A stretch of DNA of 64,000 nt. Source: Octopus sinensis. Lineage: Eukaryota. Below the pieces are notes generated by a model. It saw only the letters and a program-made list of their open reading frames with translations, had not been told where the DNA came from and did not search any database. This document shows, piece after piece, positions 2,655 through 62,620 of the stretch. Every line of letters starts with the position of its first letter. Position 1 is the stretch's first letter. The translations under genes and the position numbers were made by a program. Where the stretch lies: assembly GCF_006345805.1 (NCBI RefSeq), contig NC_043005.1, positions 41,850,001 to 41,914,000 of the forward strand. The letters run 5' to 3'.

Positions 2655-4650
2655 GGTTGACATTTTAAATTTCGTTGCGTGCCTGCAGGAACTTAAGAGT
2701 TCGCGTCTTTGATGGAAAGCGCTATTATTCTTGAATTAGATAAAGAATTTTTCCGAAAGGCATAAATTACATTTCATGGGTGTTTCATGAGATCGATGTC
2801 TGTAAGCTGATGCTTTATCTAAAATTTTCCATGTTACATCGAAATGACGGGTTTTATTTTCTTTCAATTCGCAGACATGTTTTGGCGGACTTGTCCTATT
2901 TTCGGGGTACCGGAATGAATTTCTGTGAAAAAAAAAAAAGAGTTTTCGGAAGCCCCTGTGTATGTTTTATATTCTCTTGAGCCTTCTATTTGTACTTTAG
3001 CCCTATACACAATCCCTTTCTCCAGACATTTTCCTTCCAACGGACAGGAGGTCTCATCTTTGCAATTAGAATTCTTCGGATTTGAATCGGCTCTGTAGCT
3101 ATCTGTAATTATTTTAGTGTTGTGTTGGCTAATGAAAGAGGCAAAGTTTTTACAACAAGAATAGCTAATCTTCAGCGTTCTTCTATTAAATATTCTGTAA
3201 AGCCTATGGTTAGATTGAAAATGCTTAGAAACTAACTTCCCTACCTACATTAGTTTTTACGGCCATATTAAAAGGTGGGCTGAACCACAAAACCCTCCTA
3301 GTTCTAGTTCTACGTGTGGTATTATTGCCAGCATTAACTTCGTTGTATTGGATCCTCTCAGAGAATCCACTATTCCTTAATGCGTTGTTGTAATAGGGTG
3401 CAGCATCTTGAAATGCTGTCTCATCCGAAGAAATTGAAGATATTCACCTACATACATTACTGACTAGGTTCCTAAGAATAACTGGCACATGATTAGATAC
3501 TTTGTTAATAAAAGATAGCTTTTCATTAGGCTTACGGCAAGGTTTGAATTTATCATACTCTAAATCTAAATTTATATCTAAGAAATCTACGCTTTAAGAT
3601 TACTATCTATCGTAATCAGTGAGCCCATCCTTTGGAAGAAAACAATTAGATCCTTCCTAAGCTTATTTAGTTCGTGGCGTTTAAATTATGGGTGACTATA
3701 AGGCCGTCATCCCTGTATAATCCTGCGTCAATAAAAGGGAATTCTAGATTTAGATTGTGCAAAATATAAGCTCCTATGAGCACACATAACTCAGCCCTGT
3801 CATATGCTCCCATCGGTACATCGAAAACAGAATCTTCACTCTTTTTTGATCGAGGTAGAATCCTCAAAAAAAAAAAAAGAAGGGATTTTCTCGCAGGTGT
3901 GATAATATCTATTTCCGAGTCATCAATGGTGACATACTGTTTGGCAAAGTATAATGCTCTTAGAAGAAAAGGCCTGGATATTGACGAGTAAAAGTCAACA
4001 ATATCAAACTCTGTAAATTTGCAGTTATGCTTATGGCTAATCCCTTTAAACCAATCTGTTACTGACTTGCTATTTTTCCAAATCCCTTAATTCAATTCAC
4101 TATCTAACATAGTTAAAATACGATCTAAAATATATTTGCTAATAATACCTATTTGAGTTTTAGCAGGATTTACTCTTTACTCTTTTACTCTTTACTCTTT
4201 AATCAATCTACATTTAGGGTTTCTATTAAAATTAGCTTTATGAACTTTTAGGATAGTAAAAGTGTGGCTTGGGGGAAGATATTCTATCCTATCACTAATT
4301 TTAAGATTCTTAGCTTTTCTTCTTGCATCCAAATTCACCTCTTTGTATAAATTTGCAATGTCTTTTTTGTGTGTCTGTGATGCTATTTGAAATGAGACGC
4401 TTATAAACGTCCTTATCAACCGCATATAAGTTTTTTTTCTTTTTTGTCTTATCAGAGTTCACGAAGATCTTATTCGAATTCTTAATTTCTCTAATTTTTT
4501 CCTTCATATCTCCCTGTAGTTGGTTACTGAATTTACGGAATTTAATTTTTTCTAATGAGCACGAAAAGGTCTTTTTCGAAGGCTTCTAATTCCGGAATAG
4601 GTGGTGGGTTTTTGGAAGATTTAAAGCCTTCTTCTTTGATACAAAACAGA
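2655..4650 (-). mobile_element. Penelope-like retroelement, degenerate near-complete RT + GIY-YIG ORF
   Basis: Motifs in order: CRLI(N)PAK (~4200-4160), FDVPMGAYDRAELC and YRDDGL (ORF 3667-3867), VLWFSPPFN (~3290), GIVYRAKV...YTGASE GIY-YIG (~3015-2945), C-terminal CNLCLSEK...CRH (~2770-2680); frameshifts and stops. Confidence 0.9.
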
Positions 4651-4805: not shown

Positions 4806-4965
4806 TGCAGGAGTGGCTCTGTGGTTAGAAGCTTGCTTCCCAACCATATGGTTCCGGGTTCAGTCCCAATGCGTGGCACCTTGAGCAAGTGTCTTCTGCT
4901 ATAGCCTCGGGTCGACCAAAGCCTTGTGAGTGGATTTGGAGACGGAAACTGAAAGAAGCCCGTTG
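4806..4965 (+). mobile_element. tRNA-derived SINE (family A, octopus OK/OR-type)
   Basis: gcaggagtggctctgtggtt...ggttccgggttcagtccc...gacggaaactgaaagaagccc; multiple copies in window. Confidence 0.85.
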
Positions 4966-5566
4966 TATATATATATATATATATATAGTTGAAATTTATA
5001 GAAAGACAAAAAAGCAGGTGTATTAGTTTGACGTTCAGGAAAGTGAAAATGAAAGGAATAAGAGAAGATAAACAGAATAAGAATAAAAAATAAATGGATT
5101 TAGCGGTGAAGCATGCCGGTCACTTCGACGAATGTGGGTTAGGTAAATCACCCTATGGCCACCTGTCTGCAAGTTCAATTCTTCAAACTTTTAGTAGCAT
5201 CCTCTACATGTTCCTGTCCACCTCTTTCCCTAATGTCACTCTACTTAAGAAAAACGTATGATGGTGTTGGGACTGGTGTCTTCGTGTCTTGAACAGTCTG
5301 TAAGATGAATATTATGATAGTGGGGCATTGTTTCTGTAGATCCATATATGGTCTGTTGCAAAAAAATGCCACGAGCTCAGTAGTTATTAGGATGCAGGAT
5401 TATAGATAGGGTTGATGTCTCTTCGAAAACCAGCTAAAGAGCAGGAGGCCTCATCTGCACACCAGGTCAGAACTAACTTGGAAACGATAGTCACTGACCA
5501 AGAGGTTGTTCAGCACCCTTTGAAACGTTGGAGCTCCCGGACTAGGACCCCACTACATTCACATAT

Positions 5567-18699: not shown

Positions 18700-18723
18700 C
18701 ATATATACCTACATATACATACA

Positions 18724-18759
<36 letters not shown>

Positions 18760-19260
18760 TAAGTTTTTCTTTCAGTTTCCGTCTATCAAATTCATCCACA
18801 AGGCATTTTGTCTCCCAGAAGCTATAATAGATGAAACTTTCTCAAGGTAGAACGCAATGGGAGTGAACCTGGAACCAAAGAGTTCTATTCCCTTTGTCTA
18901 TCAAGAATATTCCGAGTCTGATTAATATATTTCTTACCATCACTCTCATACTTTACAAGCTAGATTCGGTAAGGAAATATCAACGCAAACTTGAAACATC
19001 ATTTTGTCAGTGATACTCAGAGTAAAAGACATATAAAGGGCAGAATTAGTATCCTTCATGTATTTATTTGTAGAGTATGTAGTGGTATCTTCAGAATTTA
19101 AATACTGTTGTATCCACTTTACCTTTCAGTTCAGCAAATTGTAATAAAAATCAAGTTTTGCTGTTTAAAACAAGATCAACCGTGATCCTAAAGTTTTATG
19201 AACAATGACCTTCCATCACGTGTTTTATATTCAAAAATGGTATTTCTATAGTAAAGCATA

Positions 19261-19343: not shown

Positions 19344-19386
<43 letters not shown>

Positions 19387-19389
<3 letters not shown>

Positions 19390-20996
19390 TGGCGGCCAAA
19401 ATGTTCAGAACGGCATTGTTTTCGTCAGAAAAGTAGATATAATTTTTTATGAAAGTTGTTATATATTCTATAATTTTCACAGACAATAAATGCGATATTA
19501 TTTGTTATTGCCTGAGATTTTGGTGTAATTTGAGAGGATAATACAAAAGTTATAGATGATTTAGTGATTTACTGCAAAACCCATGGCGGCTAAAATGATC
19601 CGAACGGTTGCTTTTACTCTGTGTTTTAGAACATTTAACCGGCGAACTCTAATGTTTTGAATTTGTTTACGTGACGGTTCGTTTACTAAACATTAGTAAG
19701 AATATTTGCAGTGTACTTTGTTAATATAATGCCACTTACTCCGTTACCAATTCGTCAGCAGATTATTAAGCTTCGAAGGAAGGATAATTTAAGTATTGGA
19801 TCTATTGCAAAGATTGTTAACAAGTCAAAAAGTGTTGTACACGGTATTTATTCTTAAGGTCTACGATGATTGTGGTTCGTGTGAAGCAAGAAAGTTTACA
19901 GGTAGGCCAAGGAAAACGACCAAGAGAGAAGATCGTGCTATGGTAAAGTTGGTTAAAAAGGACAGATTTAAAACTGCTGCTGCTGTTTCTCGGAAACTTT
20001 ATCTCGAAGAAATGTGTCTCGTCGTTTAGTTGAACAAGACCTACAAGCAAGAGCACCTGCAGTGAAGCCACTGATCAGCTCCAAGAATAAAAAGTGTCGT
20101 CTTACCTTTGCAACCAAACATGTGTTGTGGTCTCAAGAAAAATGGCAAACGGTGCATTTCAGTGATGAATCTAAGTTTATGTTATTTGGCTCAGATGGGA
20201 AAAGGTACGTTCGTAGAAAAGTAGGTGAAAAAATGTCGCCTAAATGCCTTAAGATTAGTGTTAAATTCGGTGGAGGAAGTCTCATGGTTTGGGGGATGAT
20301 ATCTGGAGATGGTGTGGGCCCTTTGGTGCGATTACATGGAAAGGTAAACGCAGGAGTTTATAAACAACTTGTAAAAGATCATGTCTTGCCTGTGCTGAGA
20401 AATTCAACTAAACGACCACCCATATTCATGCAGGACAATGCCCCATGTCACAAGGCTAAGGTGGTCATGAACTTCCTTAAGGCTGAAAAGGTTATTGTTA
20501 TGGATTGGCCTGCTTAAAGCCCAGATCTCAATCCTATTAAAATTGTATGGAATATTCTAGGAGAACGTTCGAAAGCCAGAAATCCTAAAACAACTGAGCA
20601 ATTATGGAATGCCCTTCAGGAAGAATGGAATAAGATCACCCAGCAAGAAATTGATAATTAAATTTCTCATGCAGTCAAAGATGTCAGAGTGTGATTGAAG
20701 CTAAAGGGCTTCACACTAAATATTAAATAATTCCTGTATTCTCTGTCATTTTTGATTATTTTGTTATTTTTTCAACCGTTCTGATACTTTCGGCCGCCAT
20801 GGGTTTTGCAGTAAATCACTAAATCATCCATAACTTTTGTATTATCCTCTCAAATTACACCAAAATCTCAGACAATAACAATTAATATTGTATTTATTGT
20901 CTGTGAAAATTATAGAATATAAAACTACTTTGATAAAAACTTATATTTACTTTTCTGACGAAAACAATGCCGTTCTGAACATTTTGGCCGCAACTG
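19387..20996 (+). mobile_element. Full-length Tc1-like DNA transposon with ~220-bp IR/DR-type TIRs, TA target duplication
   Basis: TA-cagtggcggccaaaatgttcagaacggcattg...caatgccgttctgaacattttggccgcaactg-TA; inner repeat tggcggctaaaatgatccgaacgg at ~19584. Confidence 0.95.
19729..20726 (+). pseudogene. Tc1 transposase (DD34E type), disrupted
   Basis: GRPRKTT, HFSDES, VWG, FMQDNAPCH, WPA*SPDLNPIK; frameshifts, in-frame stop at 20515-20517, E to K. Confidence 0.92.
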
Positions 20997-23128
20997 TATA
21001 TCCATAATATATATCCTCCTATTTAGAAAACATATCGGTCGGTGTAATTGTGTTTGTTTGCCATCGCGTGAAATCTATATTAGTAAATTCCTAAAATAAC
21101 CTTTAATGATTGAATTAATTTATTTTAACCTTACATTTACCCAACTAAACTTATTGCCTGCTCCTTAAAAAGAATTTATAATTAAAATAACAGTTTCACA
21201 ACTGACTCTGTGAATGCTGTTGAATAATGGAAGCGGCTGAATGCTAGTAAAAATTTCTTTGTGGTATTTATTTTTCTATTCTATTGATAGAGTGGAAAAT
21301 GTTTCACTTTCTTCTGACAGTGTGGAAAATACTGGATACTACTTTAATGGGATCACTTCAATCTACTTATAACCATCTTCGGATGTCAGGAACCCTTAAT
21401 ATACAAGATTAAAGAGAATAGTCACAATTTCAACGTCCTTAAAAATATCTCAACGGGATCAGAGATGGTTACAGGCTCAATAACAATAGCATCATATTTG
21501 TAGTAGAGCTCACTAAAGGTTGGCATACATCACTTCGAAATATCAATGAGAGACATGCTCAGATTTTTGTTAGAAATCGGCATCTTTATCGGTAATTGAG
21601 ATATTGGACCCTCTTTATATTTAATTAATTCGAGTGACCATAAGACTTTAGTCTTATGGTCATGTTGAAGCCCCACTTCAAGTTTCGTATGTCACTATTC
21701 GGCGGTATTTGTATGAGAGAAACTTACTCAGGTGATTATTTTAAACAGGAAACCCTGTGAAACAATTGGATATCCTTACGTAATCTACACTGTGCAAAAG
21801 GAAGTCTGCCATGTTAGATGGTGAACATTCTGTAATATAAAACATCGTATTGGTGTTTAATTATTTCACATTCTAGAGTTAATACAGTCCATTGCTGCAG
21901 ATTTCTCGTTTAAAGGTATCTGTAAGCGGTATATCAGCAGCCGTAAAAACGATAGTTTAGCCCACATATGGTTGGAAAGGTGTTAACAAAGTAAATTAGT
22001 TACAACTGAGAAAGGAAATGATTCGCAAAGAGCTATTTAGTTCACCAAGAGTTTATCACATAAGCTACGTCACTGGTGATACCTTGAGTAGTAAAATATA
22101 AATATTAAAAGTGAAAGTAAAATGGAAATTAAAGGGAAATGTAGTAATGCGTAAAATTGTCTTAGATTTCTATTTAATAAATATGCTTTTATTGCTTCAT
22201 TATAAATACGTTGAGACATCAAGTGTTTCAGAATACTTCTTTAGTAAAATCTGATTAAGTTGTTTCGCTTCGATTTCATTTGAAGGTAGCTGCAAGCAGA
22301 TAACATTATCTGACTTGTGCATCCGTGATCATTAAAATCAACCTGGATTATTTGCCTTAAGTTTACCTCAGTTACTTCCATGGCATCTGTCTTTCATTGA
22401 TCTTCTTTATATCTCCTACCAACAAATTATAGAATAAATTATAGAATACATCAGAGTTTTTGATCATATTTGATAATCACTGTTCTTGTTTTCTTTCAAT
22501 TTTGTAAAATAACAAAAACATAGCACAAAAATTTCGAGAATTTTCACTTTTTTCTTGCATATGAAAGTATATAGATGCTTTGAGAAGAAACAAAACGTTA
22601 ACACGATAAAAGGAAATCCAGTAGACACTTTATTCGTGTTAAATATCACGAGTAATTAAAATGTATCACACAGATCTTTTGAATAATTTGCCATTTCTAG
22701 AAATTGAAATAAAAAATAGCAACACCAACATCTATCATTCTTACATTATGTTAACAAATATTACTCATATAATAACTTTCGAGTTTGGAGCTAAAATATG
22801 TATTACGTTTAACATCTAATTCGTGGTTCTAAGAATATAGATTATTATTGCCCTGCCGTTTATTATGAATAAAATACATTGTTTAGTAGAAAATCGCTGA
22901 GTGGGTAACATCCAGGTTTCCTTATCATCAACCCAAGAGCTTGAATAGAAACTCATGTCCTAACAGTTGACGTAGAAAGTATGGTTGAAATTTCTCAGAG
23001 ATACGTAAATCTTATTTTCGTATGTAAGCGAAGCGTTTACCTGAAAAATAAATTGCAGAAACGAAAGTTACAAAATATGAAACTTTATAATTAGAGTACT
23101 TACTAAAATGTGTGTAATATCCATAGCA

Positions 23129-29037: not shown

Positions 29038-29726
29038 TGGCGAGCTAGGAAAATTGTTTGCGCTGTGGTCAAAATGCTTAGTAGCATTTCGTTCGTCTTC
29101 AAGCTCTGAGTTCAAGTGCCACTGAGATCCACTTTGACATTTATCATTTCGAGTTCAATAAGATGAGTAACAGTTGAGTACATAGATCGATGTAATCGAC
29201 TAAAACCCTCCACTCAAAAACAGTTGGCCTGTTATTACTCTCTCTTTTACTCTTTTACCTGTTTCAGTCATTTGACTGCGGCCATGCTGGAGCACCGCCT
29301 TTAATCGAGCAACTCGACCCCGGGACTTATTCTTTTGTAAGCCCAGTACTTATTCTATCGGTCTTTTTTGCCGAACCGCTAAGTAACGGGGACATAAACA
29401 CACCAGCATCGGTTGTCAAGCAATGCTAGGGGGACAAACACAGACACACAAACACACACACGCACATATATATATATACATATATACGACAGGCTTCTTT
29501 CAGTTTCCGTCTACCAAATCCACTCACAAAGCTGTGGTCGGCCCGAGGCTATAGTAGAAGACACTTGCCCAAGAGTCCACGCAGTGGGACTGAACCCGGA
29601 ACCATGTGGTTGGTAAACAAGCTACTTACCACACAGCCACTCCTGCGCCTATTATTATTATTAAAATTTTATTGTTGTTGTTGTTGTTGTTGTTGTTGCT
29701 GTTGTTGTTGTTGTTATTGTTATTAC

Positions 29727-30027: not shown

Positions 30028-30058
<31 letters not shown>

Positions 30059-31149
30059 TATTATTATTATTATTATTATTATCACGTAAGAAATTGGTAG
30101 AATCGGTACAACGTCGAACAAAATGCATTGCGGTATTTGTTATGAATCTGTATATTTTAATTTCAAATCCTGCTATGTTCAGTATTCTCTTTTCTTTGTT
30201 CCGATCACGATAAAAAGATACCAGTCAAATAATTTGGTAGATATAATCGGCTATTTTTCTTTCTCGAATCTCAGATCTTGTGCCTATGTCAGATATAATT
30301 GTAATGGTGGTAGATTAGCAGGACGCATTGAGATTAGGATGATATACCTTGTGCTTCTTAATTAGATTACTTCTGTTTATGAGTTGATATCTGTACTTAG
30401 CTTTCTTATCTTCCGAGATCAAGAGAATAAGCATAAATCATACATTCGTGTCTACAAAAAATATTATAGCAGCATTGGAAGAGTTTGGTACCAAAATTAG
30501 ATCTAATTTTCAACGTGATTATATATGTTCGGATGCAGGAATGGTTCTACCGGTTTAATTTTTACTTGTGGTCATTACTATATGTATCATGAAGAGTGAA
30601 TTAGGAAGGGGCTTGAAGAACAACTGTCCAGATAGACATTTCAAAAATTTGAAGCGACTCATAACGCTCATCTCATATCGAAATCTGTCACAGGTTTACT
30701 GTCATGCTGGAAGTCACGATATAATACGACCTCGTGTTTCTATGATCAATGGGAGAATTATGACAGATATAGATTTTATATTATGTGTGATTCGCCTAAA
30801 ACAATACTCACAGAATAGACGTCGTAGCAAATTCAACACGCAATCTATATAGACAACCAGACGAATATTCAAATGTAGACGTGCGTGTATGTACACACGC
30901 ACACGCACGCACACACACACACACACCACACACACACACACACGTACACATACATACATGCATACAAACATACATTCCTACATACATACACACATACAAA
31001 CATACATGCAAACATACATACATACATACATACATACATAAATACATACATAAATTCAGAATGAAAAAGTAAAGGACAAAAATTAAAGGAAAGGATATAA
31101 GTTTTGCAGGATATTATAAGGGATATAAGTTTATGAAGTAGGAATTTGA

Positions 31150-31503: not shown

Positions 31504-31730
31504 CCATATGGCGTAGTGGTTAAGAGCGCGGGCTACTGATTCCGAGTTCGATTCCAAGCAGTGACCTGAACAACAGCAATAATAATAATAATAATAATAA
31601 TGATAATAATAATGATACCCAGATTCGAAATTTCCCCAAGGCTGGAGTGTATATTGGCCGAAACGTTGTGTTAACAACAAACAAGATGAGGACAAATATC
31701 CGTCGAATGTAAATAATGTAAACAATGTAG
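31504..31730 (+). mobile_element. tRNA-headed SINE with (AAT)n middle and hammerhead-like tail (family E)
   Basis: A box TGGCGTAGTGG 31509-31519, B box GAGTTCGATTCC 31544-31555, (AAT)n, tail ggccGAAACGTTgtgttaacaacaaacaagatgaggacaaatatc shared with 46850-47134 and 49905-50050. Confidence 0.8.
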
Positions 31731-32502: not shown

Positions 32503-33239
32503 GCAACAGAGAATTACCGGTTCGACTTACAGGATGAATATGGACATTTTATCTTTTTTATATTGTCACTTAAACATGTACTAATATACCCATACGAACT
32601 AAAAATTACATATGCCATACATACGAATTTATACTCAAGGTAGAAAAGTTGCAAGTTTCGAAGCAGATATCCATTACTATTCTCCCTTTCGTGGCTTTTT
32701 AGGAAAATGTACAGATCACTGTTCAAACACCTATATCAGGCCTATTTTATTTGTGTCTGACAGAAGTTTTAATGAGATAATTTTGCCGATACTTTTCATC
32801 TTGATACTTATAAATATTTAATACGAGTAACATGCTCTCTAGATATTCCAGGACTGTCTTTCCTGTTGATAGAATTGTATATTGTCTTCACAACAACATG
32901 GTACTACCTTGGGAGTAATTATCGTAATGGCATTTTTGGAGAGTTTCAGAAACACGACATAATCGTCAATTTCGGTAGCACCAATTGAGTTTAAGGGCTT
33001 TACTATCGCTTTTGTTCATTAGGCATTTAGGTACAGTCCCCTGTTTTTAGATTGCTTTGCCTTTAGAAATCGGACGTGATGTGAGTATATATGTACGCAT
33101 GTATGTGTGTAATTTTTCTTTAGTTTTTACCCTGGTTCTTCTTAAGCGAGTTCAGGCCAGTCGCTAACAAAACGACAATTTGTTTTTTAGTTAAGAAAGT
33201 TTCCGGTGTTTGTAGAAACGTGGTTTAGTGTGTTCGTTG

Positions 33240-34270
33240 AGCTGTCGATGCATACATCCAAGCGTGTACCTCAATTCACCTGAAGACTCACAGATGGAGA
33301 ATCTTTGGAATATCATACAAAGCTTCACTGTGCTACTAATAGATTGAATTTGGAGAATCTGCGTCAGTTTCTTTTGATCTTTCTTCGAAAAACCTACCAT
33401 TTCTCGGTTTCTGTGGAAATTTGTTGGTGCATAGCTTAATGTACATATGCTGATAGGAAGAAATGAGAATTTATAGTTAGTGTACAAGAGCTTTAAGTTC
33501 GGCATTAATTCACTATAAATGTTCTCTTTTTCCTGAAATTTTGATTGAATATTTACATCTGCTGAGTAGCTGACCTCTACAACATTACATAACTTTCGTT
33601 CCTTGTCTCGCAGAATAATATCAGGTCTGTTATGTTTGCATCGAATTGCTATTTTTATTGTTCCATCAGTGTTCCTTTTTTAAAAAAGTTGTGAATACAT
33701 GCTGTTTCTGGCATTGCCCGGAATACATCTGGGCAATTCTTCCTGCAGACAGCCTTACCTCAGAAGCAAGTATTATCTTGTAGACATTTTGGAGCAGCTA
33801 CTACTGATGTGGTTAATATCTTCTTGACTAGTACCATAGAGCCGACACTTTCTATCACAATATGGAGGTTTGGTAGTATCTTTTTATCCCTCTTGTTTGT
33901 CAAGTGTTTGATAGCCATGTTCTGTTCATAAATAGCAAAAGCATATCCTTTTAGGTGGGATGTAATGTATCTATCACAGGTTCAGAAGAGGCTTCTTTTC
34001 CTGTCAATGCTGTTCTTATCCTCTAGCTTACCGGATATGTACATATGCGTTTCTTTTTGTTGGTATAACGTCTGCTTCTCTTCCAAGCTTCTGTTTAGCT
34101 GGGCCAGTCCAACCTCAATTGAATCGCACGAGACAGGTTTATTCTTAGAGTACTTGCACAGTAATTCTTCTCAAACTCTAAAAATGTTGTTGCTCTCACT
34201 TTTGAGCATGCATGGAATGTACTCATTTCTTTCCTTACTGTTCAGCAGGTGAAACAATGCGACATTCAAA
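33240..34270 (-). mobile_element. Degenerate R4/Dong-like RLE LINE, 3' part
   Basis: DRKCRLYGTSQEDINHISSSCSK (CCHC-like), CKHNRPDIILRDKE...VEVSY...QEKENIY (PD-(D/E)xK RLE). Confidence 0.8.
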
Positions 34271-46395: not shown

Positions 46396-46712
46396 TAGTA
46401 TTTATTCTATCGGTCTTTTTTTTTTTGCCGAACCAATAAGTTACGGGGACGTAAACGCACCAACATCGGTTGTCAAGTGATGGTGGGGGGGGGAGGGGCA
46501 AACACAAACACTCACACAGAAACACACACACACATACACACGCATATATACGACGAGCCTCTTTCAGTTTCCGTTTACCAAATCCACTCACAAGGCTTTG
46601 GTCGACCCGAGGCTATAGTAGAAGGCATCTACCCAAGGTGCCACGCAGAAGGACTGAACCTGGAACCATGTGGTTGGTGAGCAAGCTTCTTACCACACAG
46701 CCACTCTTGCGC
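46396..46712 (-). mobile_element. SINE family A
   Basis: Matches 29345-29650. Confidence 0.88.
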
Positions 46713-46826
<114 letters not shown>

Positions 46827-46849
46827 ACAGTACCGTTTTATATTTAAGA

Positions 46850-47019
46850 GACGAGGAATTATGTATATTATTTACATTATTTACATTTGACAGATATTTG
46901 TCCTCATCTTCTTTGTTGTTAACACAACGTTTCGGCTAATATACCTTCCATCCGCCATCACGTGTCTTGGGGAAATTTCGAACATGGGTTCTCATTCCTA
47001 AAGTATTTTTTCTATGTTG

Positions 47020-47079
<60 letters not shown>

Positions 47080-47134
47080 TCACAGCCTGGAACCGAACTC
47101 GGAATCTTGCTCTTAAGCACAATGCCATATGCCC
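46850..47134 (-). mobile_element. Family E tRNA/hammerhead-tail SINE, inverted copy
   Basis: Reverse complement of head, (AAT)n and tail; head-to-head with the copy starting at 47151. Confidence 0.8.
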
Positions 47135-47324
47135 GTGGGCATATCTGCATGGTCATATGGCGTAGTGGTTAAGAGCACGGGATACCAACCACAAAATTCC
47201 GAGTTCGGTTCCAGGCAGTAACCTGAATAATAATAATAATAATTTTTTTTTTCATTTTTTTTTCTCCTTTTTTAAATTTTTATTTATTTATTTTTTTTTT
47301 GTTTATTTTTAATTTTTATGTATT

Positions 47325-47458
47325 AGACATTCACTAGTACAACACGAAAAAAAAAACCCAAATATATGGCACAGAACTTCTAACCTGTTGTCTCTTGAGG
47401 TCTCTAGGTGAGACTTGGAGCCAACTTGTACAGACATAAAGCAAAAGTCAAACATAGA
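47325..47458 (+). mobile_element. Probable short 3' end of a second (AAT)n-associated LINE
   Basis: Unique segment inside the (AAT)n tract ending ...aagtcaaacatag-(AAT)n. Confidence 0.45.
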
Positions 47459-47529
47459 ATAATAATAATAAAAATATTAATAATAGTAATAATAATAGTA
47501 ATAATAATAATAATAGTAATAATAATAGC

Positions 47530-47561
<32 letters not shown>

Positions 47562-47578
47562 TAATAATAATAATAATA

Positions 47579-47677
<99 letters not shown>

Positions 47678-47681
47678 TAAC

Positions 47682-47736
<55 letters not shown>

Positions 47737-49853
47737 TCACAAAGGCTGAACAAGCACCTGGACGAAAACAAACTGTTCCCAGAAGAGCAGAAAGGATGCC
47801 GCAAAGGCTCATATGGCTGTAAAGATCAACTAATGATTAATAAAGCCATAACGAAGACAGCCACAGAAAGAAGAAAGGCCTCAGTATGGCCTGGATTAAC
47901 TACAAAAAGGCGTTTGATAGCATCCCCCACACATGGATCCTCGAAACACTAGCCATTAACAAAGTAGCACCAACAATCATAAAATTCATAGAGCACTCTA
48001 TGAATAAATGGCAAACAGTCCTACACCTCCAAACAAAAGAGGGACTCATGAAAACCAAAGACATCCCAATTAGAAGAGGAATATTCCAGGGAGACACGCT
48101 CTCTCCACTCCTTTTCTGCTTGGCACTGTCACCTCTATCTGATATGCTAAATAGAACTGGATGCGGATATAAATGTTACGGCAAAACGATCAGCCACCTT
48201 TTATATATGGATGACCTAAAACTATACGCTGCAAATGGCAAACAGCTGGAAACACTATTAAAGACAGTTCATGGATTTAACCAAAGAAATAGATATGAAA
48301 TTTGGATTAGAAAAATGCGCCAAAGTAACCATGAAAAGAGGAAAACTAGTTAAGAATAACAACATCACACTAGATAAAACCAATGAAATAAAAGAATTAG
48401 ACCAAAGCCAAACTTACAAATACTTAGGAATCCATGAACTAGATAAGACACAACACACACAAATGAAAGAGAAAATAAAAAAAGAATATTATAGACGAGT
48501 TAGATCAATACTAAACACAGAGCTCAATGTTAAAAACAAGATAATAGGTATCAACACTTTAGCTGTCCCAGTTATAAGTTACAGCTACAATATCCTTAAC
48601 TGGACACGAAATGAACTGACCAAAATAGATAGGAAAACAAGAAAAATAATGACAGGATCTAGGATGCATCACCAAAATCTGACATAGAAAGACTATATAT
48701 ACAACGTATAGAAGGTGGTAGAGGCCTTATACAGCTGGAAAACTACTATAAAATAACCACCATAGGACTGCAAAAATATCTACTTCAGAGAAGGAAAACT
48801 GATCCAGATAGCGGAAAACACGAGCAAAACAAAAAAACTGTTCTCAGTATTTAAGGAAGCTGACAAATACAAACAAGAAATCATACCACCTAATAAACAT
48901 GAAGCAGAAGAAGAAGATGAAGAAACACACAAAGCTATAAAACAAATGAATCCAAACTAAAAATAGAACAGCAACGAACCATGATAAAACGATGGCAAGA
49001 AAAGCCCTTTCATGGTAAATACTGGACTAAAACTAAACGCAAAAGAAATAGACAAAGAAAAATCCCAGCAATGGTTGAGAAGCTCAGGACTCAAAGCAGA
49101 AACAGAGGGATTTTTAATTGCAGCACAAGACCAAAGCCTCCCCACCAGAAATTACCAAAAACATGTAATGAAAAGAAATATACAAGTACTGCAGAATATG
49201 TGGAGATGGACAAGAACAATAAATCATATTATCTCTAGCTGCCCAGTCTTGGCTAAGAAGGAATATATTCACAGACATGACAGAGTTGGAATCTACATAC
49301 ATTGGAAGCTATGCCAACATTATGGAATAACAACAGAAAAAAGATGTATAGACACACACCAGAAAAGGTCACAGAAAACGAGAAAGCAACCATACTCTGG
49401 GATATGCCGATACACACAGATAGAGAAATTAAGGCCAACAGACCAGATATACTTGTCAGAGATCATGAAGAAAGAAAAAAATGCTTTCTAATTGATGTAT
49501 CAATCCGGCTGATGACATACAAGTGTCTCTAAAAGAAATGGAGAAACTCTCAAAATACAAAGACCTGGAAATGAGAGGTAACTAGAATGTGGAATCTGAA
49601 AACAGAAACAATTCCTATCATAGTAGGTGCATTAGGCATGATAAAAAAAAATATTCAGACAATACATAACAAAAACACCAGGACTTACAAACACATATAA
49701 CATACAGAAAATTGCACTACTAGGCACTGCACACATCCTACGCAGAACACTTTCCATACAATAACCATCAGAGCATCACAACAAATCACAGCACATACCC
49801 AAGGCACACAGAGCTGTGCTCGGTAGTGAAGTGAAAGCACGCTATAAAAATAA
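47737..49853 (+). mobile_element. R4/Dong-clade RLE LINE, 5'-truncated, inserted in (AAT)n
   Basis: EEQKGCRKGSYGCKDQL, YKKAFDS, GIFQGDTLSPLLF, HLLYMDDLKL, YKYLG, HIISSCP...RHDRV, WDMPIHTD...NRPDI...LIDVSI; ORF ends ~49763. Confidence 0.93.
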
Positions 49854-50168
49854 AAAAAAATTTTTTAAAATAATGATAATAATAATAATAATAACAACAA
49901 CAACAACATCGAAAAAATATCCTAGGAATGAGAACCTAGGTTCGAAATCTCCAGAAAAGACTTGATGAAAGCTGGAGGGTATATCAACCGAAATGTTATG
50001 TTAACAACAAACAAGATGAGGACAAATATCCGTCAAATGTAAATAATGTATATACAACAGTTTGTATATGCCGCACACACGCACTTACACCCAGATTATA
50101 TATATATATATATAAAAGAAATATTGAATTTCTAAATCTCTCATAGAGACATGTACGGTGGTGGGGCG

Positions 50169-50393
50169 ATAGAATGGTTGTATACTGTCAATCTAACAAG
50201 AACGTGACAGTAGGGGTTACACCACCGCTGTATAGCCCTAGGAAGCATCGAACGCCTCCTGATAGCTTTGACACATTTTTGCCTGTGTTCTTAAAGCCAT
50301 CAGGAGGCGTTCGATGCTTCCTATGGCTATACAGCGGTGGTGTACCCCCTCCTGTCACGTTCTTGTTAGATTGACAGTATACAACCATTCTAT
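50169..50393. mobile_element. Foldback/MITE: near-perfect ~100-bp-arm palindrome
   Basis: atagaatggttgtatactgtcaatc... / ...gattgacagtatacaaccattctat; mirror ORFs on both strands. Confidence 0.85.
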
Positions 50394-50399
50394 ATATAT

Positions 50400-53150
50400 A
50401 TATTCAAAGTAATTCTGGAAAAAAATTTCCCTATCTCTCATAGATATCATAGAATTATATCTAGGAAAACAGTTAGGATTTCTTATTCAACCCTCCCAAA
50501 TATGTCCACTTTAATAGCTAAGATTAATAATAAAAATATTAAACTAGCCAGGAAAGATAGAAATAAAAATAATAATATCAGCATGAATACCAATAGCAAT
50601 TATAATAATACTACCAACAATAAAAACAACAATAGTAACTATCAAAACATAGGTGAAATTAGTAACCACAGAATGACTAATAACATTAACATTAATGGTA
50701 ATAATAACAATGCCGATATTAATAGAAGTAATAATGTTAATAATAGAAATAATAGAAATAAGGCTAATGGAGAAAATAGGAGAAGAATGAAAATATCAGT
50801 GATATTTATAACAACAATATGCAGTCGGATAATAAGACTAACAATAATAGTAACATTACCAATAATATAAGAAATCATGGTAGGACTTTAGACCTAAATG
50901 ACGAAGCTGAAGGATCAATAAATAATAGCAATACTTTAGATATCAGCACCAACTATAGAAATGATAATCAAAATAATAGGAACCTAAGACATCTACCCAA
51001 GAATAATCCAAAGCCTGAAGTTGCCTCCTGTGTGTAAGTGTAGAAGAAAATCAAAATGCCCGCACCTGGTCTATGTGGGGAAAATATGTAATCTATAAAT
51101 GTACCATATCCACGGAGAATAACAAAATCTTTACCTTGGATGTACAATTAATTTTCTAGCCAGAGTTAGAAATCACATCTCGTCTTTTAATTACGTCATA
51201 AAGCTGGTACCACCACACTTTCAAACAAAATCTGGGAACTCAAAAGTAATAATAAAAATTATAACCTTAATTGGGAAATAGTTAGGAGAGCAATTCGTAT
51301 AAAAATAGTAGGGTTGGTTGCAAACTATGCTCCATGGGACGTATGAATTCTAAAGCATAGAAAACATAGAAACTTATGAATAACCATATCGAACTAGGTC
51401 AAGTTGTGTCCACGCTAAATTGAAGACTTTAAAACATTTTAAATGATTAGAATATTCGTAACTAGATAGATAGATATAACTTGATTTCTACTAGTATAGC
51501 ACTGCTTTAAGTAGATAAACTAAGTTTCTCACACTACAGTTATCTTTTTCCTTATATCTGCATCAGTTTTTTGAGAACAGGGAAATGAATAGTACTTATA
51601 TGCTGCTTAATTGAGGCCTTATTTAATTTCAAACTCATAATTTTTAAATTCTTAATTTTAAATCTTAATTGTAATTTTTAATTTTAATTCCTAACTTAAT
51701 CTAATTTAAGTAGCATAACTCTAATAAAATAAAATGAATTACTATAGCCCCATAATTCTATTTCAAAATTAAATAAATAAGGCTACCCCCTCGGTGATAA
51801 TATGATTATCTTCATTATGATAGACAATCCCCTAACACCTTGTAAATGATCTTCTAAGATTTGACCTGTAGTCCGTCAATGTATGAATAATAAAGGCAAC
51901 TCCTTAAGACAATAAAATGATAAATTAAATAAGTAAATCTTAATGACTTTTTGATAGGATTATACTTAGATTTCCTAATGTATTTTCTTTTGATTTTAGT
52001 ATCTGACCCCTAAACTCCTGACTGTGTTATCTCTTTAGATTCTCTTTAAATTCATAGCTGATTTCAACAGCAAAAATTAGCTGTTTTACTGGTCAAAGAA
52101 TAATATTCTCCTCTAGTTCCTAGATGCCTGTAAATTAAAACCAGACTTGCCGTCTACTGATTCTTCTGTATAACTAGAACCCTCTTTTTTTCTTTCCTTT
52201 TCCTTTCTTTTTCTTTTTCCCTTCTTTCCCTATTTCTTTCTCTTTCTCTTTTTTCTTTTCTTCTTCTTATTCTCTTTTCTTTTTCTCTTCTCTTTTAGTC
52301 CCCTTCCCCCCTTTTTTTGCTCCCTCCTCCTTTATTTCTTTCTTTTCTTCTATTCCCTTCCATTTTCTATTCTTTGCCTCTCTAGAAAGCCCTTCAGCCT
52401 TTAAAAGTTAAATAGCTACAGCCTCGTAAATAGCAGTAATATGATTAATGTGGCAAATACCTAATCATATAACAAGAATTGATACCTACCTCATTGTGTT
52501 CAACATTGATAAATTTATCGCCTGTGAATATGAAATTCCTCTCATTTTCTGGAAAATTACATCTACACCATTGGAAATTGTGCATCTATACAAAGGATTA
52601 ATTCACCCTCTCTGTAATGCTAATAAGCAGGAATTGAGACCCACCTCGTTGTGATTAACAATGGATAAATTTGTTTTCTGTGAGTATGTAATCCCTCATC
52701 ATATCTCTGGAAATTCATATGTGCACTATGGATTAGGTCACCTTCTCTGGGTTGCTATTAAAACTTTTTTAAAATTCTGTGATAAGACTGTACATCATCT
52801 TTAAAGAACTTTAATGAACTTTGGATATCTGTTTATGTTTATGTTACTTAATTATCTTCATTACTTCATGAGTATAGCCTCAACCACTAGGATGTCTAGA
52901 GAACGCACATCTATTTTAGCTGATGAGTACGGGACACGTTTATATGCTGTAATTTTTGCAACTTTTAATAAAGCCTGTCCTTGTATGAAACGATTGTACT
53001 AAAAACCTATCCATTCTTGTTGCTCTTTCTCGCTTATAATCACCCCACATTACTGTATTGTTAAAACAGTATAGTTTTTTTTGGGGCATCTAAGTTAGGT
53101 ACCATATTCAAGTAAATTCATTAAATTAATTGAATCTTTATTGCTTTTTG
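50400..53150 (+). mobile_element. Penelope-like element, 5'-truncated: RT-distal region, Asn-rich linker, GIY-YIG, long 3' region with hammerhead
   Basis: RKTVRISYSTLPNM (~50462-50505), VIYKCTI...YLG...ARVRNHISSF...LSNKIWELK...WEIV...CKLC (51090-51330); HHR at 52914-53004. Confidence 0.85.
52914..53004 (+). ncRNA. Type I hammerhead ribozyme
   Basis: UUUUAG-CUGAUGA-GUACGGGACA...UGUCCUUGUAU-GAAAC-GAUU-GUA-CUAAAA: intact core, 6-bp stem I, ~10-bp stem II, 2-bp stem III. Confidence 0.85.
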
Positions 53151-54948: not shown

Positions 54949-55128
54949 TGTGTGTGTGTTTGTGTGTGTATTTATAATTGGCTTCTTTTAGCTTCCGTCT
55001 ACCAAATCCACTCACAAAGCCTGAAGCAATAGTATAAAACACTGGCTCCCGAAGTGCCACACAGTGGTACTGAACCCGGAACCAGGTGGTTGGAAAGCAA
55101 ACTTACTACCACAGGTCCACACCTGCCC
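54642..55128 (-). mobile_element. SINE family A with expanded internal (TG)n
   Basis: Head 54980-55128, 3' part 54642-54850. Confidence 0.85.
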
Positions 55129-56707
55129 CTAATACTCAAGAGTATGTAAATTTACCGAGAGAGATTGACCAGCTTTTAACATAATTTATTATCTCAAAGA
55201 AGAAGAGATTGTTATAGCAGATATAGAAGTGTGGTAAATGGGGGTGGCGTAAGCGTGAGAGAAACTAGAATACTTTTTATGGTTGGTGTTTATGGCAGTT
55301 GTTGGTGTAGTGAATTTTCTTGCGTGTGCTCTGCACAGAGTGTCAGTTTGTTAGAGAATCAGCAGCTAATAGATTGCTTTGAAAATTTGTAGAAATCTGT
55401 CGCGATACGAGCGCAATTACAAATCAATAGTCAACACTCTCGATGGAAATTTTATAGAAGGTTCGAATTCATAACTTGCGATTACAGAGATCAAGTGCAG
55501 TGTTTATTGGTGTGCATTTGGGCCAATGCTAGCGATATACAGAAAAGTATACTCGCTAAACCAAAGGTACATTCACCTACATGCTCACTACCATCCACCT
55601 TGTATTTAACTATCCTTTGCTTTTCTGATGGGTTACTCATCGTGGAGTAAGCGCACATGTGCTTGAAGAAATCGATGTGGAATCCACGAAGTTTTAAAAT
55701 GTAGAGCTTTATGCATGTTAGTCGCATTTTATGGGTTTTGCTTGTTTGGAGCAGTGCAGAAGCGTTTTATTTTTGTTTATTCTAGTCGGTGTGTTTTTAG
55801 AATTTTCATATCATTTACTACAATTAAGAGATAACTAGCATGGCACATGCAATTTTCCTTTGCGTCTGTGGTAATTTGCATCATTGTTGCCTGTATTGCT
55901 GCAGGAAAACGGTTGATGTTGTTACTCCTCATACGTTCGGCTGTCGGTTGTGCTTCCACCAAAGCGAGATAGAAATTCGCAGTCTACGGCTATTTGATCC
56001 TTGTTCCTATACCTGTGCTTTTCAAATTATAATCATTGTCTTTGATTGGTTTCTCTGTTGTTGAGCTCAAGAATGCAGTTCGTAATGAAATGTTTGCCTT
56101 CGCATATTGGGGTTTGTACAGGTGTACAAGCTCTCTTCATCGTTTCAGCAGTGCTTTGGTTATTAGGTCTTCAGTCCTAGTGTTATTCGCTCGCAATAGA
56201 ATCACCTTGTTTATCCTTTTATCTCGACACTTGCAGTTCTATAAATGCCGCAGTTGATATCGTCGGGAAGTTTCTGATGTGCTCTATTTCCTGTGCAGGA
56301 TTTAGGTTGAGCGGCAATAGGAGAATTAAACGAGCTTGACGTTGGCGGAGAGATTTTATTACTTAAGTAGAAAAGCATGGCACAATCTGTTCTGTATTTC
56401 TTTGAATATTACGGTTCTGAGCATTCCCGTTTGCTGACTAGTTATCAGAGGACACGTAAGTGGCTTCCTTCTCCAATTCATAGAATAGAATAGGAAAACA
56501 TATTCTTTCTATTTTACACATATTAATAGCATAAAATAATATTTTTACATTCATATTTTACTCATTCCAAGGTTTTATGATATTTACCATTTATTCCAGT
56601 TTTCATTTATGTTATGCTTTATACAAAACAGATATTGTTTAATTAATGTCGACCTGTCAATGCACAAATATGTAAATTAGATCATCCACAACGGACCAAC
56701 GTAATTT

Positions 56708-58064: not shown

Positions 58065-58184
<120 letters not shown>

Positions 58185-58304
58185 AAAGGGCTTAGTAAAA
58201 TAACTTTGCCGCATACTGAACTCGTTAGAATAGCAGCTAGAAAAACTTTTTATAAACTATTTCTAACACTTAAAGAAAACCTCTCTCATATAGTGTTTGC
58301 ATTC

Positions 58305-58357
58305 TGAGCTGATGAGAGAAGGGTCGATTTTGACTAATCTTGAAACGTACGTACTCA
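58305..58357 (+). ncRNA. Minimal type I hammerhead ribozyme, copy 1
   Basis: UGAG-CUGAUGA-GAGA(AGG)GUC GAUUUU GAC(UAA)UCUU-GAAAC-GUAC-GUA-CUCA; palindromic loop III. Confidence 0.88.
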
Positions 58358-58867
58358 AATAACCTTTGCATTTGATTTTTTAATGTCTCTACCCCCATAC
58401 TTCCTTGAGTTGAATTGAGCAAACACTATATGAGAGAGGTTTTCTTTAAGTGTTAGAAATAGTTTTATAAAAAGTTTTTTTAGCTGCTATTTCTAACGAG
58501 TTCAGTATGCGGCAAAGTAATTTATTTTACTAAGCCCTTTTATATAATGTAATAATTTGAATTCGCCTTAAATGGTCCCTTTGCATACTGAATACTTGGT
58601 GAAATTGATTAATTAATTAATTAATTTTACCCTCAATTGTTGAAATTATAATTCATCTCTCTCTACTTAATGTCTCGGATTTTACCGAAAAAAACATAGT
58701 GTTTGCTGATTTTAACCCACGCTGGTGGAAAGGGGAGAGCAGAAATTCTTCGCTTGCATATTTGAGTTTGTTGGCACTGTTAGTTTGGAACAGATCTTCA
58801 GAAGCGATAACAAGCCGAAAGGGTATGCTCCCATTTTCAGTGTTTTCAGATTCAAACAAGGGCATTC

Positions 58868-58920
58868 TGAGCTGATGAGAGAAGGGTCGATTTTGACTAA
58901 TCTTGAAACGTACGTACTCA
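58868..58920 (+). ncRNA. Minimal type I hammerhead ribozyme, copy 2
   Basis: Identical to 58305-58357. Confidence 0.88.
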
Positions 58921-59205
58921 AATAACCTTTGCATTTGATTTTTTAATGTCTCTACCCCCATACTTCCTTGAGTTGAATTGAGCAAACACTATATGAGAGA
59001 GGTTTTCTTTAAGTGTTAGAAATAGTTTTATAAAAAGTTTTTTTAGCTGCTATTTCTAACGAGTTCAGTATGCGGCAAAGTAATTTATTTTACTAAGCCC
59101 TTTTATATAATGTAATAATTTGAATTCGCCTTAAATGGTCCCTTTGCATACTGAATACTTGGTGAAATTGATTAATTAATTAATTAATTTTACCCTCAAT
59201 TGTTG

Positions 59206-59265
<60 letters not shown>

Positions 59266-62337: not shown

Positions 62338-62413
62338 ACAATTGAGGGTAAAATTAATTAATTAATCAATTTCACCAAGTGTTCAGTATGTAAAGGACTT
62401 TGAATTCGCCTTA
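62336..62413 (-). repeat. Terminal fragment of the 58178-59213 family
   Basis: caacaattgagggtaaaattaattaattaatcaatttcaccaagt is the reverse complement of 59156-59205; between (TA)n tracts. Confidence 0.85.
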
Positions 62414-62439
62414 TATATATATATAAATAGTATACATAA

Positions 62440-62582
62440 GCGCAGGCATGGCTGTGTGATAAGAAGCTTGCTTCCCAATCATTTAGTTTTGGGTCTCACT
62501 CCTACTACATGGGACATTGGGCAAGTGACTTGTGAGTGGACCTAGTAGATAGAAACTGAGAGAAGTTTGTAATGTGTGTGTG

Positions 62583-62620
<38 letters not shown>

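Follow-up and report, generated by a model that had tools for sequence, protein, structure and literature searches.

SINEs are defined as parasites of LINEs; passengers that depend on Penelope-like elements (PLEs) have been proposed in the form of retrozymes, whose insertion route is unproven. tRNA-derived SINEs have A and B boxes, a fixed 5' end, a length of about 300 nt and high abundance, properties shared by the octopus repeat described here. In the standard model, however, their tails are derived from LINEs, whereas the tail of the octopus repeat is PLE-like. Endonuclease-bearing PLEs (Penelope/Poseidon, Neptune and Nematis) resemble the repeat in having a minimal type I hammerhead and an optional tail of 30-40 nt, according to parts of PMC4209133 and PMC11167929, and also in their insertions, for which sections of PMC8557442 and PMC3846280 describe an inverted 5' copy, a duplication around the whole unit, a junction palindrome and an AT-rich target. 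Unlike PLEs, the octopus repeat has no RT or endonuclease, carries a Pol III head and an (AAT)n array in place of the ORF, has a fixed rather than variably truncated 5' end and showed no partial tandem.

Several non-coding elements combine some of these properties. In schistosomes, SMalpha and Sjalpha place a type I hammerhead behind a Pol III promoter (parts of PMC6765202 and PMC8490949). SMalpha is often arranged in tandem, with a hammerhead that releases monomers in vitro, as those sources describe it in part, whereas the octopus copies are dispersed or inverted and have a minimal hammerhead and PLE-type ends; this comparison is one of descriptions, not of sequences. The metazoan non-LTR retrozymes are non-coding as well, with a type I hammerhead, a pLTR-like organisation and a proposed use of PLE enzymes (sections of PMC7229834 and bioRxiv 10.64898/2026.07.22.740005), and non-autonomous Chlamys (MRC1) is likewise non-coding with a proposed dependence on PLEs (part of PMC8557442). 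Tandem units and circular RNA are the defining marks of retrozymes, for which the sections concerned describe no Pol III head; the octopus repeat has its own promoter, so that a single copy would stay transcribable. Part of PMC8969392 suggests that retrozymes may count as a new SINE type. A conceptual parallel is offered by the tRNA-bearing, non-autonomous elements Helenus and Ajax, in which a small-RNA promoter stands on a non-LINE retroelement, but these use LTR machinery with a PBS and PPT and not that of PLEs (sections of PMC10886601). Further SINE and retroelement context is found in parts of PMC6962438, PMC4758252, PMC3531059 and PMC4824008.

From the octopus families OK, OR1 and OR2 the repeat is set apart by description only, not by sequence, and it may be one of them. 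Ohshima and Okada are said to have distinguished three octopus SINE families in 1994, OK being the family beside OR1 and OR2. The latter two are cited as CORE-SINEs in the portions of the literature concerned, whereas the present repeat has only (AAT)n between head and tail. A study of O. vulgaris repeats lists SINEs and PLEs separately, and the word hammerhead has 0 occurrences in its supplement and none in portions of its main text (PMC13282606). The literature compared, with Repbase, Dfam and SINEBase outside the comparison, held no dispersed tRNA-headed SINE with PLE marks and no octopus hammerhead SINE; the family may already have been named without a PLE interpretation. A Pol III promoter with a hammerhead (SMalpha) and a proposed PLE dependence (retrozymes) are each known already, and the comparison suggests that what is new is the union of both marks in a dispersed tRNA-headed SINE.

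In this paper we describe such a repeat in a 64-kb stretch of AT-rich, microsatellite-rich DNA from Octopus sinensis (64,000 nucleotides; hereafter the window). We put at about 0.7 the probability that this repeat of about 300 nt is transcribed by Pol III and is reverse-transcribed and inserted in trans by a PLE RT/GIY-YIG protein. A preliminary description of the same DNA had proposed a SINE mobilised by Penelope machinery, and this gains support from an intact hammerhead core in the family majority together with PLE-type insertion marks.

BLAST within the window returned three heads and three tails and no further locus with both boxes; a weak 31-nt head match at 29.6 kb is part of another SINE. 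The order is head, (AAT)n, tail in all three copies, in one orientation. Copy 1 (+) has its tRNA-like Pol III promoter head at 31504-31570, with the A box at 31509-31519, the B box ending at 31555 and a middle part 8 nt shorter than in copy 3, followed by an (AAC/AAT)n spacer at 31571-31617 and a tail at 31618-31729 that ends in AATGTA repeats. This tail is without its first 38 nt or so and without the hammerhead core, but retains stem II, the GAAA-CG-UU sequence and the 3' strand of stem I (31640-31671). Copy 2 (-), 304 nt long, has a head at 47076-47135, 16 nt shorter than that of copy 3 and with two mismatches in the A box, an (AAT)n(AAC)n spacer at 47013-47075 and a tail body at 46864-47012, probably the pLTR and ORF start of a PLE. 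Copy 3 (+) has the most complete head, which lies with the start of its (AAT)n at 47151-47243; its (AAT/AAC)n resumes at 49878 and runs with the tail to 50048, including a hammerhead remnant at about 49957-50002 and stopping at the second AATGT repeat. The preliminary description had likewise recognised three copies with A and B boxes, an (AAT)n spacer and a common tail, as BLAST and box matching confirm; its limits of 46850-47134 for copy 2 become 46832-47135 on the minus strand, and its three copies derive from two insertion events, since copies 2 and 3 entered together (see below).

Against the type-2 Pol III consensus, which was taken from part of PMC8969392, the A and B boxes have 0 and 1 mismatches in copy 1, 2 and 2 in copy 2, and 0 and 2 in copy 3, with A-B spacers of 25, 17 and 33 nt, respectively. 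All three 5' starts fall within 3 nt of one another, 5-8 nt before the A box, and the sequence upstream is unrelated. No internal T4 is found in any copy, which is compatible with Pol III transcription. The heads presumably resemble tRNA-Arg. Neither ARAGORN nor Rfam called a tRNA in the window or in the copies, and the predicted folding of the heads was no better than that of shuffles (z near 0); decay of the tRNA fold in such a head is expected. By the usual marks of a tRNA-derived SINE, the repeat has internal A and B boxes near a fixed 5' end, falls within 80-500 nt, is non-coding and is dispersed, and it lacks a recognisable tRNA fold.

The tail of copy 2 contains a minimal type I hammerhead motif at 46921-46966 (-), decayed in this copy, with a predicted cut after GUU at 46926/46925. 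As the preliminary description had stated, the core has decayed in every copy of the window: it is deleted in copy 1, where 13 nt are gone between two AAG triplets, and reads GUGAUGG in copy 2 and UUGAUGA in copy 3. The family majority was obtained from contigs of four public runs (X1, X2, X7 and X21, with three organism codes) aligned to the copy 2 tail, the query excluding the head and the repeat at 47006-47045. The runs yielded 5397, 3059, 18941 and 2255 matching contigs with unrelated flanks, these counts and the depths below not being copy numbers. At six motif positions specific to copy 2, the alternative letter prevailed in every run, at 88-100% of depth, and the first core base was C in 93-99% of depth, giving an intact CUGAUGA in the majority. 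The majority sequence has stem I ACAC, CUGAUGA, an extra A, a 5-bp stem II (GGCUG/CAGCC), GAAA, CG, UU and stem I GUGU. The consensus that had been guessed from the three window copies was therefore right, with C at the position left as n, and the intact core sought in it is found in the contig majority of the four runs.

The minimal hammerheads of PLEs have, in the part of PMC4209133 concerned, a helix I of 4-5 bp, an extra base after position 9, a G10.1-C11.1 pair and a palindromic 15.2-16.2; the tail majority shows all four. When the 64-kb window was shuffled 300 times, a strict minimal-hammerhead descriptor gave 2 matches with a stem II of at least 4 bp and 0 with at least 5 bp. Rfam gave 0 matches at gathering score over the whole window, and among the 150 of 213 E-value matches listed, almost all of them microsatellite noise, there was no hammerhead or tRNA. 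On single copies it called neither; at 58309, where another family has an intact minimal hammerhead, it likewise made no call. Single-copy folding of the hammerhead gave z near 0, and no covariation was seen in its pairs across the three copies, with 84% paired and the comparison uninformative. Pattern scans of metagenome, prokaryote and viral collections gave 0, 0 and 0 matches. A shorter pattern hit four loci, all four of them chance matches of 18-23 nt without flanking homology, and was rejected. Tail contigs also occur in run X7, a run only guessed to be RNA. These data support a minimal Penelope-type hammerhead in the tail of the family majority, with its cleavage predicted from sequence; a single minimal hammerhead is reported not to cleave (part of PMC4209133).

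The 3' ends of the family fall into two classes. Common ends lie at the AATGTA repeats, 46864-46873. Among the matches listed, loose ends at 46867-46873 were carried by 313, 106 and 135 contigs in X21 and by 52 and 32 in X2; they also cluster in X1, and X7 has one row of 23 with an agreement of 0.51. The class at 46867 is probably clipped at the copy 2 mismatch at 46866, so that the true end would lie near 46864. A second, smaller set among the matches listed ends at 46835 (86 contigs in X21) and 46831 (20 in X2); X1 and X7 have no long-end row among the matches listed, yet each has a piece starting at 46835. Flanks beyond the loose ends are unrelated (agreement about 0.4), and in each of the four runs depth drops about tenfold below 46834. 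Translations of other copies, found in three protein records, match copy 2 through residue 54 (46834), and all three differ at residue 55. Within the window the short end is found in copies 1 and 3 and the long end in copy 2, whose extension (46832-46863, -) is predicted to pair with the upstream GAUGAGGA stretch. This stem-loop is modestly stable (z -2.0; 7 of 200 shuffles equally stable).

The end classes are thus 30-40 nt apart, with an extension of 32-41 nt that is shared by a minority of family copies and by one of the three in the window, as with the optional tail of PLEs. With a purified PLE protein, reverse transcription was seen to begin at two positions inside a stem-loop, and the gap between them corresponds to the optional tail of 30-40 bp, which is called unique to PLEs; insertion in vitro is independent of hammerhead cleavage (sections of PMC11167929).

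Copies 2 and 3 lie head-to-head (5'-to-5'), 15 nt apart, and are a single insertion with the published PLE signature, the inverted layout arising from one event. A 13-bp direct repeat, in our interpretation a target-site duplication, stands at 46819-46831 (+), where it adjoins a (TA)n array, and again at 50049-50061 (+), outside both tails. In the window this 13-mer is confined to 46819 and 50049; 21 of 20000 random 30-mer pairs share at least 13 nt, and 6 of the 13 duplicated bases are TATATA. When target duplications were sought around single copies, the longest shared words were 5 nt for copy 1, for which no duplication was found in its flanks, 4 nt for copy 2 alone and 7 nt for copy 3 alone. 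The inversion junction (47127-47150) holds an 8-bp fold-back, 47127-47134 with 47137-47144 around a 2-nt loop, followed by 6 nt. A 5'-to-5' pair within 20 bp arose in 439 of 1,000,000 random placements. Identity between the two copies is 79% of aligned columns in the tail, ends included, and 86% in the head; this divergence and the 16-nt head deletion would mean that the copies either decayed separately once inserted together or came from two templates. An inverted repeat with 8-bp arms and a 4-nt loop also occupies the right flank (50050-50069), where it overlaps the duplicated 13-bp word.

For PLEs, parts of PMC3846280 describe a pLTR that lies next to the element in inverted orientation, a duplication of 8-10 bp enclosing the unit, a one-sided 31-bp tail, palindromic inverted junctions and pLTRs that suffice for mobilisation in trans; the insertion scheme in part of PMC8557442 is identical. 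The combination of inverted 5' copy, whole-unit duplication and junction palindrome is seen in one of the two insertion events of the window, and PLE insertions without target duplication are also described (part of PMC3846280). The preliminary description had proposed absence of LINE-type target-site duplications as a test of PLE mobilisation, which is the wrong discriminator, for PLE insertions carry duplications of 8-10 bp (part of PMC3846280) and the present one carries 13 bp.

The (AAT)n of copy 3 was subsequently interrupted by insertions totalling 2.6 kb (47244-49877, +), which comprise a T-rich stretch, a piece of about 130 bp, (AAT)93 and, chiefly, a 5'-truncated and frameshifted LINE. 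The LINE, from 47737 to about 49860, has RT, CCHC and restriction-like endonuclease motifs, its RT domain matches Pfam RVT_1 (E 3.6e-16), and its relatives include single proteins of about 1200 aa. From these motifs we take it to be a Dong/R4 element. Dong-R4 elements are listed for O. vulgaris in part of PMC13282606. As a partner of the SINE this LINE was rejected, the 3' end not being shared. The 130-bp piece between the head of copy 3 and the LINE (47325-47457, +) ends in (AAT)n and may be the 3' end of another LINE that targets (AAT)n.

Translation of the tail matched a predicted protein labelled Octopus bimaculoides at 71% identity over the whole query, which indicates that the repeat family occurs in Octopus. 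The frame spans 55 codons, with one stop in copy 2 and none in the O. bimaculoides record, as expected if the tail contains the first codons of a partner ORF. A search with this frame gave a single match, itself near-length, and a search of representative proteins gave three of 51-156 aa, none of PLE length, which is weak evidence. Equally weak is the result that none of four candidates among longer proteins was a long PLE ORF starting with the tail frame. Two PLE fragments occur in the window, neither with a matching pLTR. One (50169-51440, +), which lies about 110 bp beyond the end of copy 3, consists of a 225-bp fold-back and then the 3' portion of a degenerate PLE, and has an asparagine-rich insert in its linker; N-rich inserts are described for rotifer Penelope (part of PMC3846280). 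The other (2660-4640, -), also degenerate, has RT-like and GIY-YIG-like remnants, identified by eye and with no Pfam match, and shares 38% identity over 64 aa with the 50.4-kb fragment; no hammerhead was found downstream of it.

Other elements were also observed in the window. At 58174-59213 a second, unrelated family has an intact minimal hammerhead twice (58309 and 58872), with the loop ACGUACGU; the two belong to a partial tandem (563 bp, 352 bases identical) that follows an inverted copy and is surrounded by (TA)n; to judge by its layout it is a putative young PLE-type pLTR arrangement without an ORF between the repeats. A more abundant SINE-like family of about seven copies (1935-2074, 4807-4986, 18711-18877, 29434-29656, 46502-46716, 54969-55134 and 62412-62617) usually stands beside (TA)n and has a short head stretch in common with the head of the hammerhead-tailed SINE. 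A Tc1/mariner remnant at 19368-21014 has 243-bp inverted ends (92%) and a transposase fragment, and a LINE C-terminal fragment at 33191-33679 (-) has a restriction-like endonuclease motif (weak Pfam match, E 0.025).

The preliminary description would have given up the SINE if head and tail proved usually unlinked; in the window they are joined in both insertion events, and, the contig query having excluded the head and 47006-47045, the linkage rests on these two. That small number is one reason to ask whether head and tail are separate repeats, an (AAT)n-tailed tRNA SINE and a truncated PLE pLTR that repeatedly landed in its microsatellite end, the more so as the tested PLE endonuclease prefers ATT (part of PMC11167929) and PLEs are biased to microsatellites (part of PMC8557442). 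Yet all three heads have tails and all three tails have heads, while the four other (AAT)n arrays of the window (1078, 15458, 29731 and 30034-30080) have neither; the spacer-tail junction of copies 2 and 3 is identical; and the duplication lies outside both tails while the inversion turns at the head starts, which means that copying in this event included the heads. Independent landings are therefore unlikely. Mobilisation by an ordinary LINE, with the pLTR as a passenger and the AATGTA repeats as a LINE-type 3' end, would agree with the short 3' tandem repeats at which most copies end, as many LINE-dependent SINEs do, and SINEs in general are said to borrow LINE RT. It is nevertheless quite unlikely, for it leaves unexplained both the longer class of ends, 30-40 nt beyond the first, and a full head-to-head copy inside one duplication, and the tail matches none of the LINE pieces in the window, the inserted LINE included.

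The tail, with its 55-codon frame, resembles a pLTR joined to the beginning of an ORF, which could also mean that the copies are 5'-truncated pieces of an autonomous PLE that captured a tRNA-like stretch in its 3' region, with Pol III uninvolved; most PLE insertions are indeed 5'-truncated (parts of bioRxiv 10.64898/2026.07.22.740005 and PMC8969392). Random truncation would not be expected to place three of three starts within 3 nt with unrelated sequence upstream, and we judge this origin very improbable. Least probable of all, to our minds, is an element that replicates as SMalpha or a retrozyme would, by way of multimeric transcripts cut by the hammerhead and of circular RNA, even though SMalpha likewise has a type I hammerhead behind its Pol III promoter and metazoan retrozymes are proposed users of PLE enzymes (parts of PMC7229834 and bioRxiv 10.64898/2026.07.22.740005). 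The hammerhead is of the minimal and not the canonical type, and the element ends at the head start and 52-93 nt downstream of the cut site, not at the cut site itself. Head-to-tail tandem units of this repeat were absent from the window, and no partial tandems forming direct pLTRs were seen among the three copies, which are too few for this to weigh heavily.

Mobilisation in trans by a PLE protein, the reading we prefer, most likely began when a PLE pLTR landed in the (AAT)n with which a tRNA-derived unit ended, and Pol III read-through, with no T4 inside, would then have produced a new master element. Once a PLE protein had bound the tail, cDNA synthesis would begin inside the predicted 3' stem-loop, at either of two positions, and the choice of position would give rise to the optional extension. 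With cDNA starting internally, neither poly(A) nor a fixed 3' end would be needed, and heterogeneous Pol III ends would be irrelevant. Fold-back priming at the 5' end would yield the inverted second copy. The hammerhead would remain mostly uncut in a monomer, keeping promoter and tail on one RNA, so that head and tail remain joined; it may be an inherited part of the recognition region and not a release device. On its sequence features, the repeat would appear to work like a non-autonomous PLE that has a SINE head.

We lean towards regarding the repeat as a third SINE type, tRNA-headed and driven by Pol III, parasitic on PLE machinery and not on that of LINEs or LTR elements, and highly abundant in octopus genomes, with its own promoter on each single copy. 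If this is true, an element of about 300 nt present in thousands of copies would offer a PLE protein a minimal natural substrate in trans, and the cis signals would be mapped to about 150-180 nt. The copies would also allow the two start sites, fold-back priming and target choice to be analysed in large numbers, and would test the need for the hammerhead. In part of PMC13282606, 893 of 900 recently active octopus SINE families are unclassified, and on the same condition part of this unclassified fraction may be wrongly assigned to LINEs.
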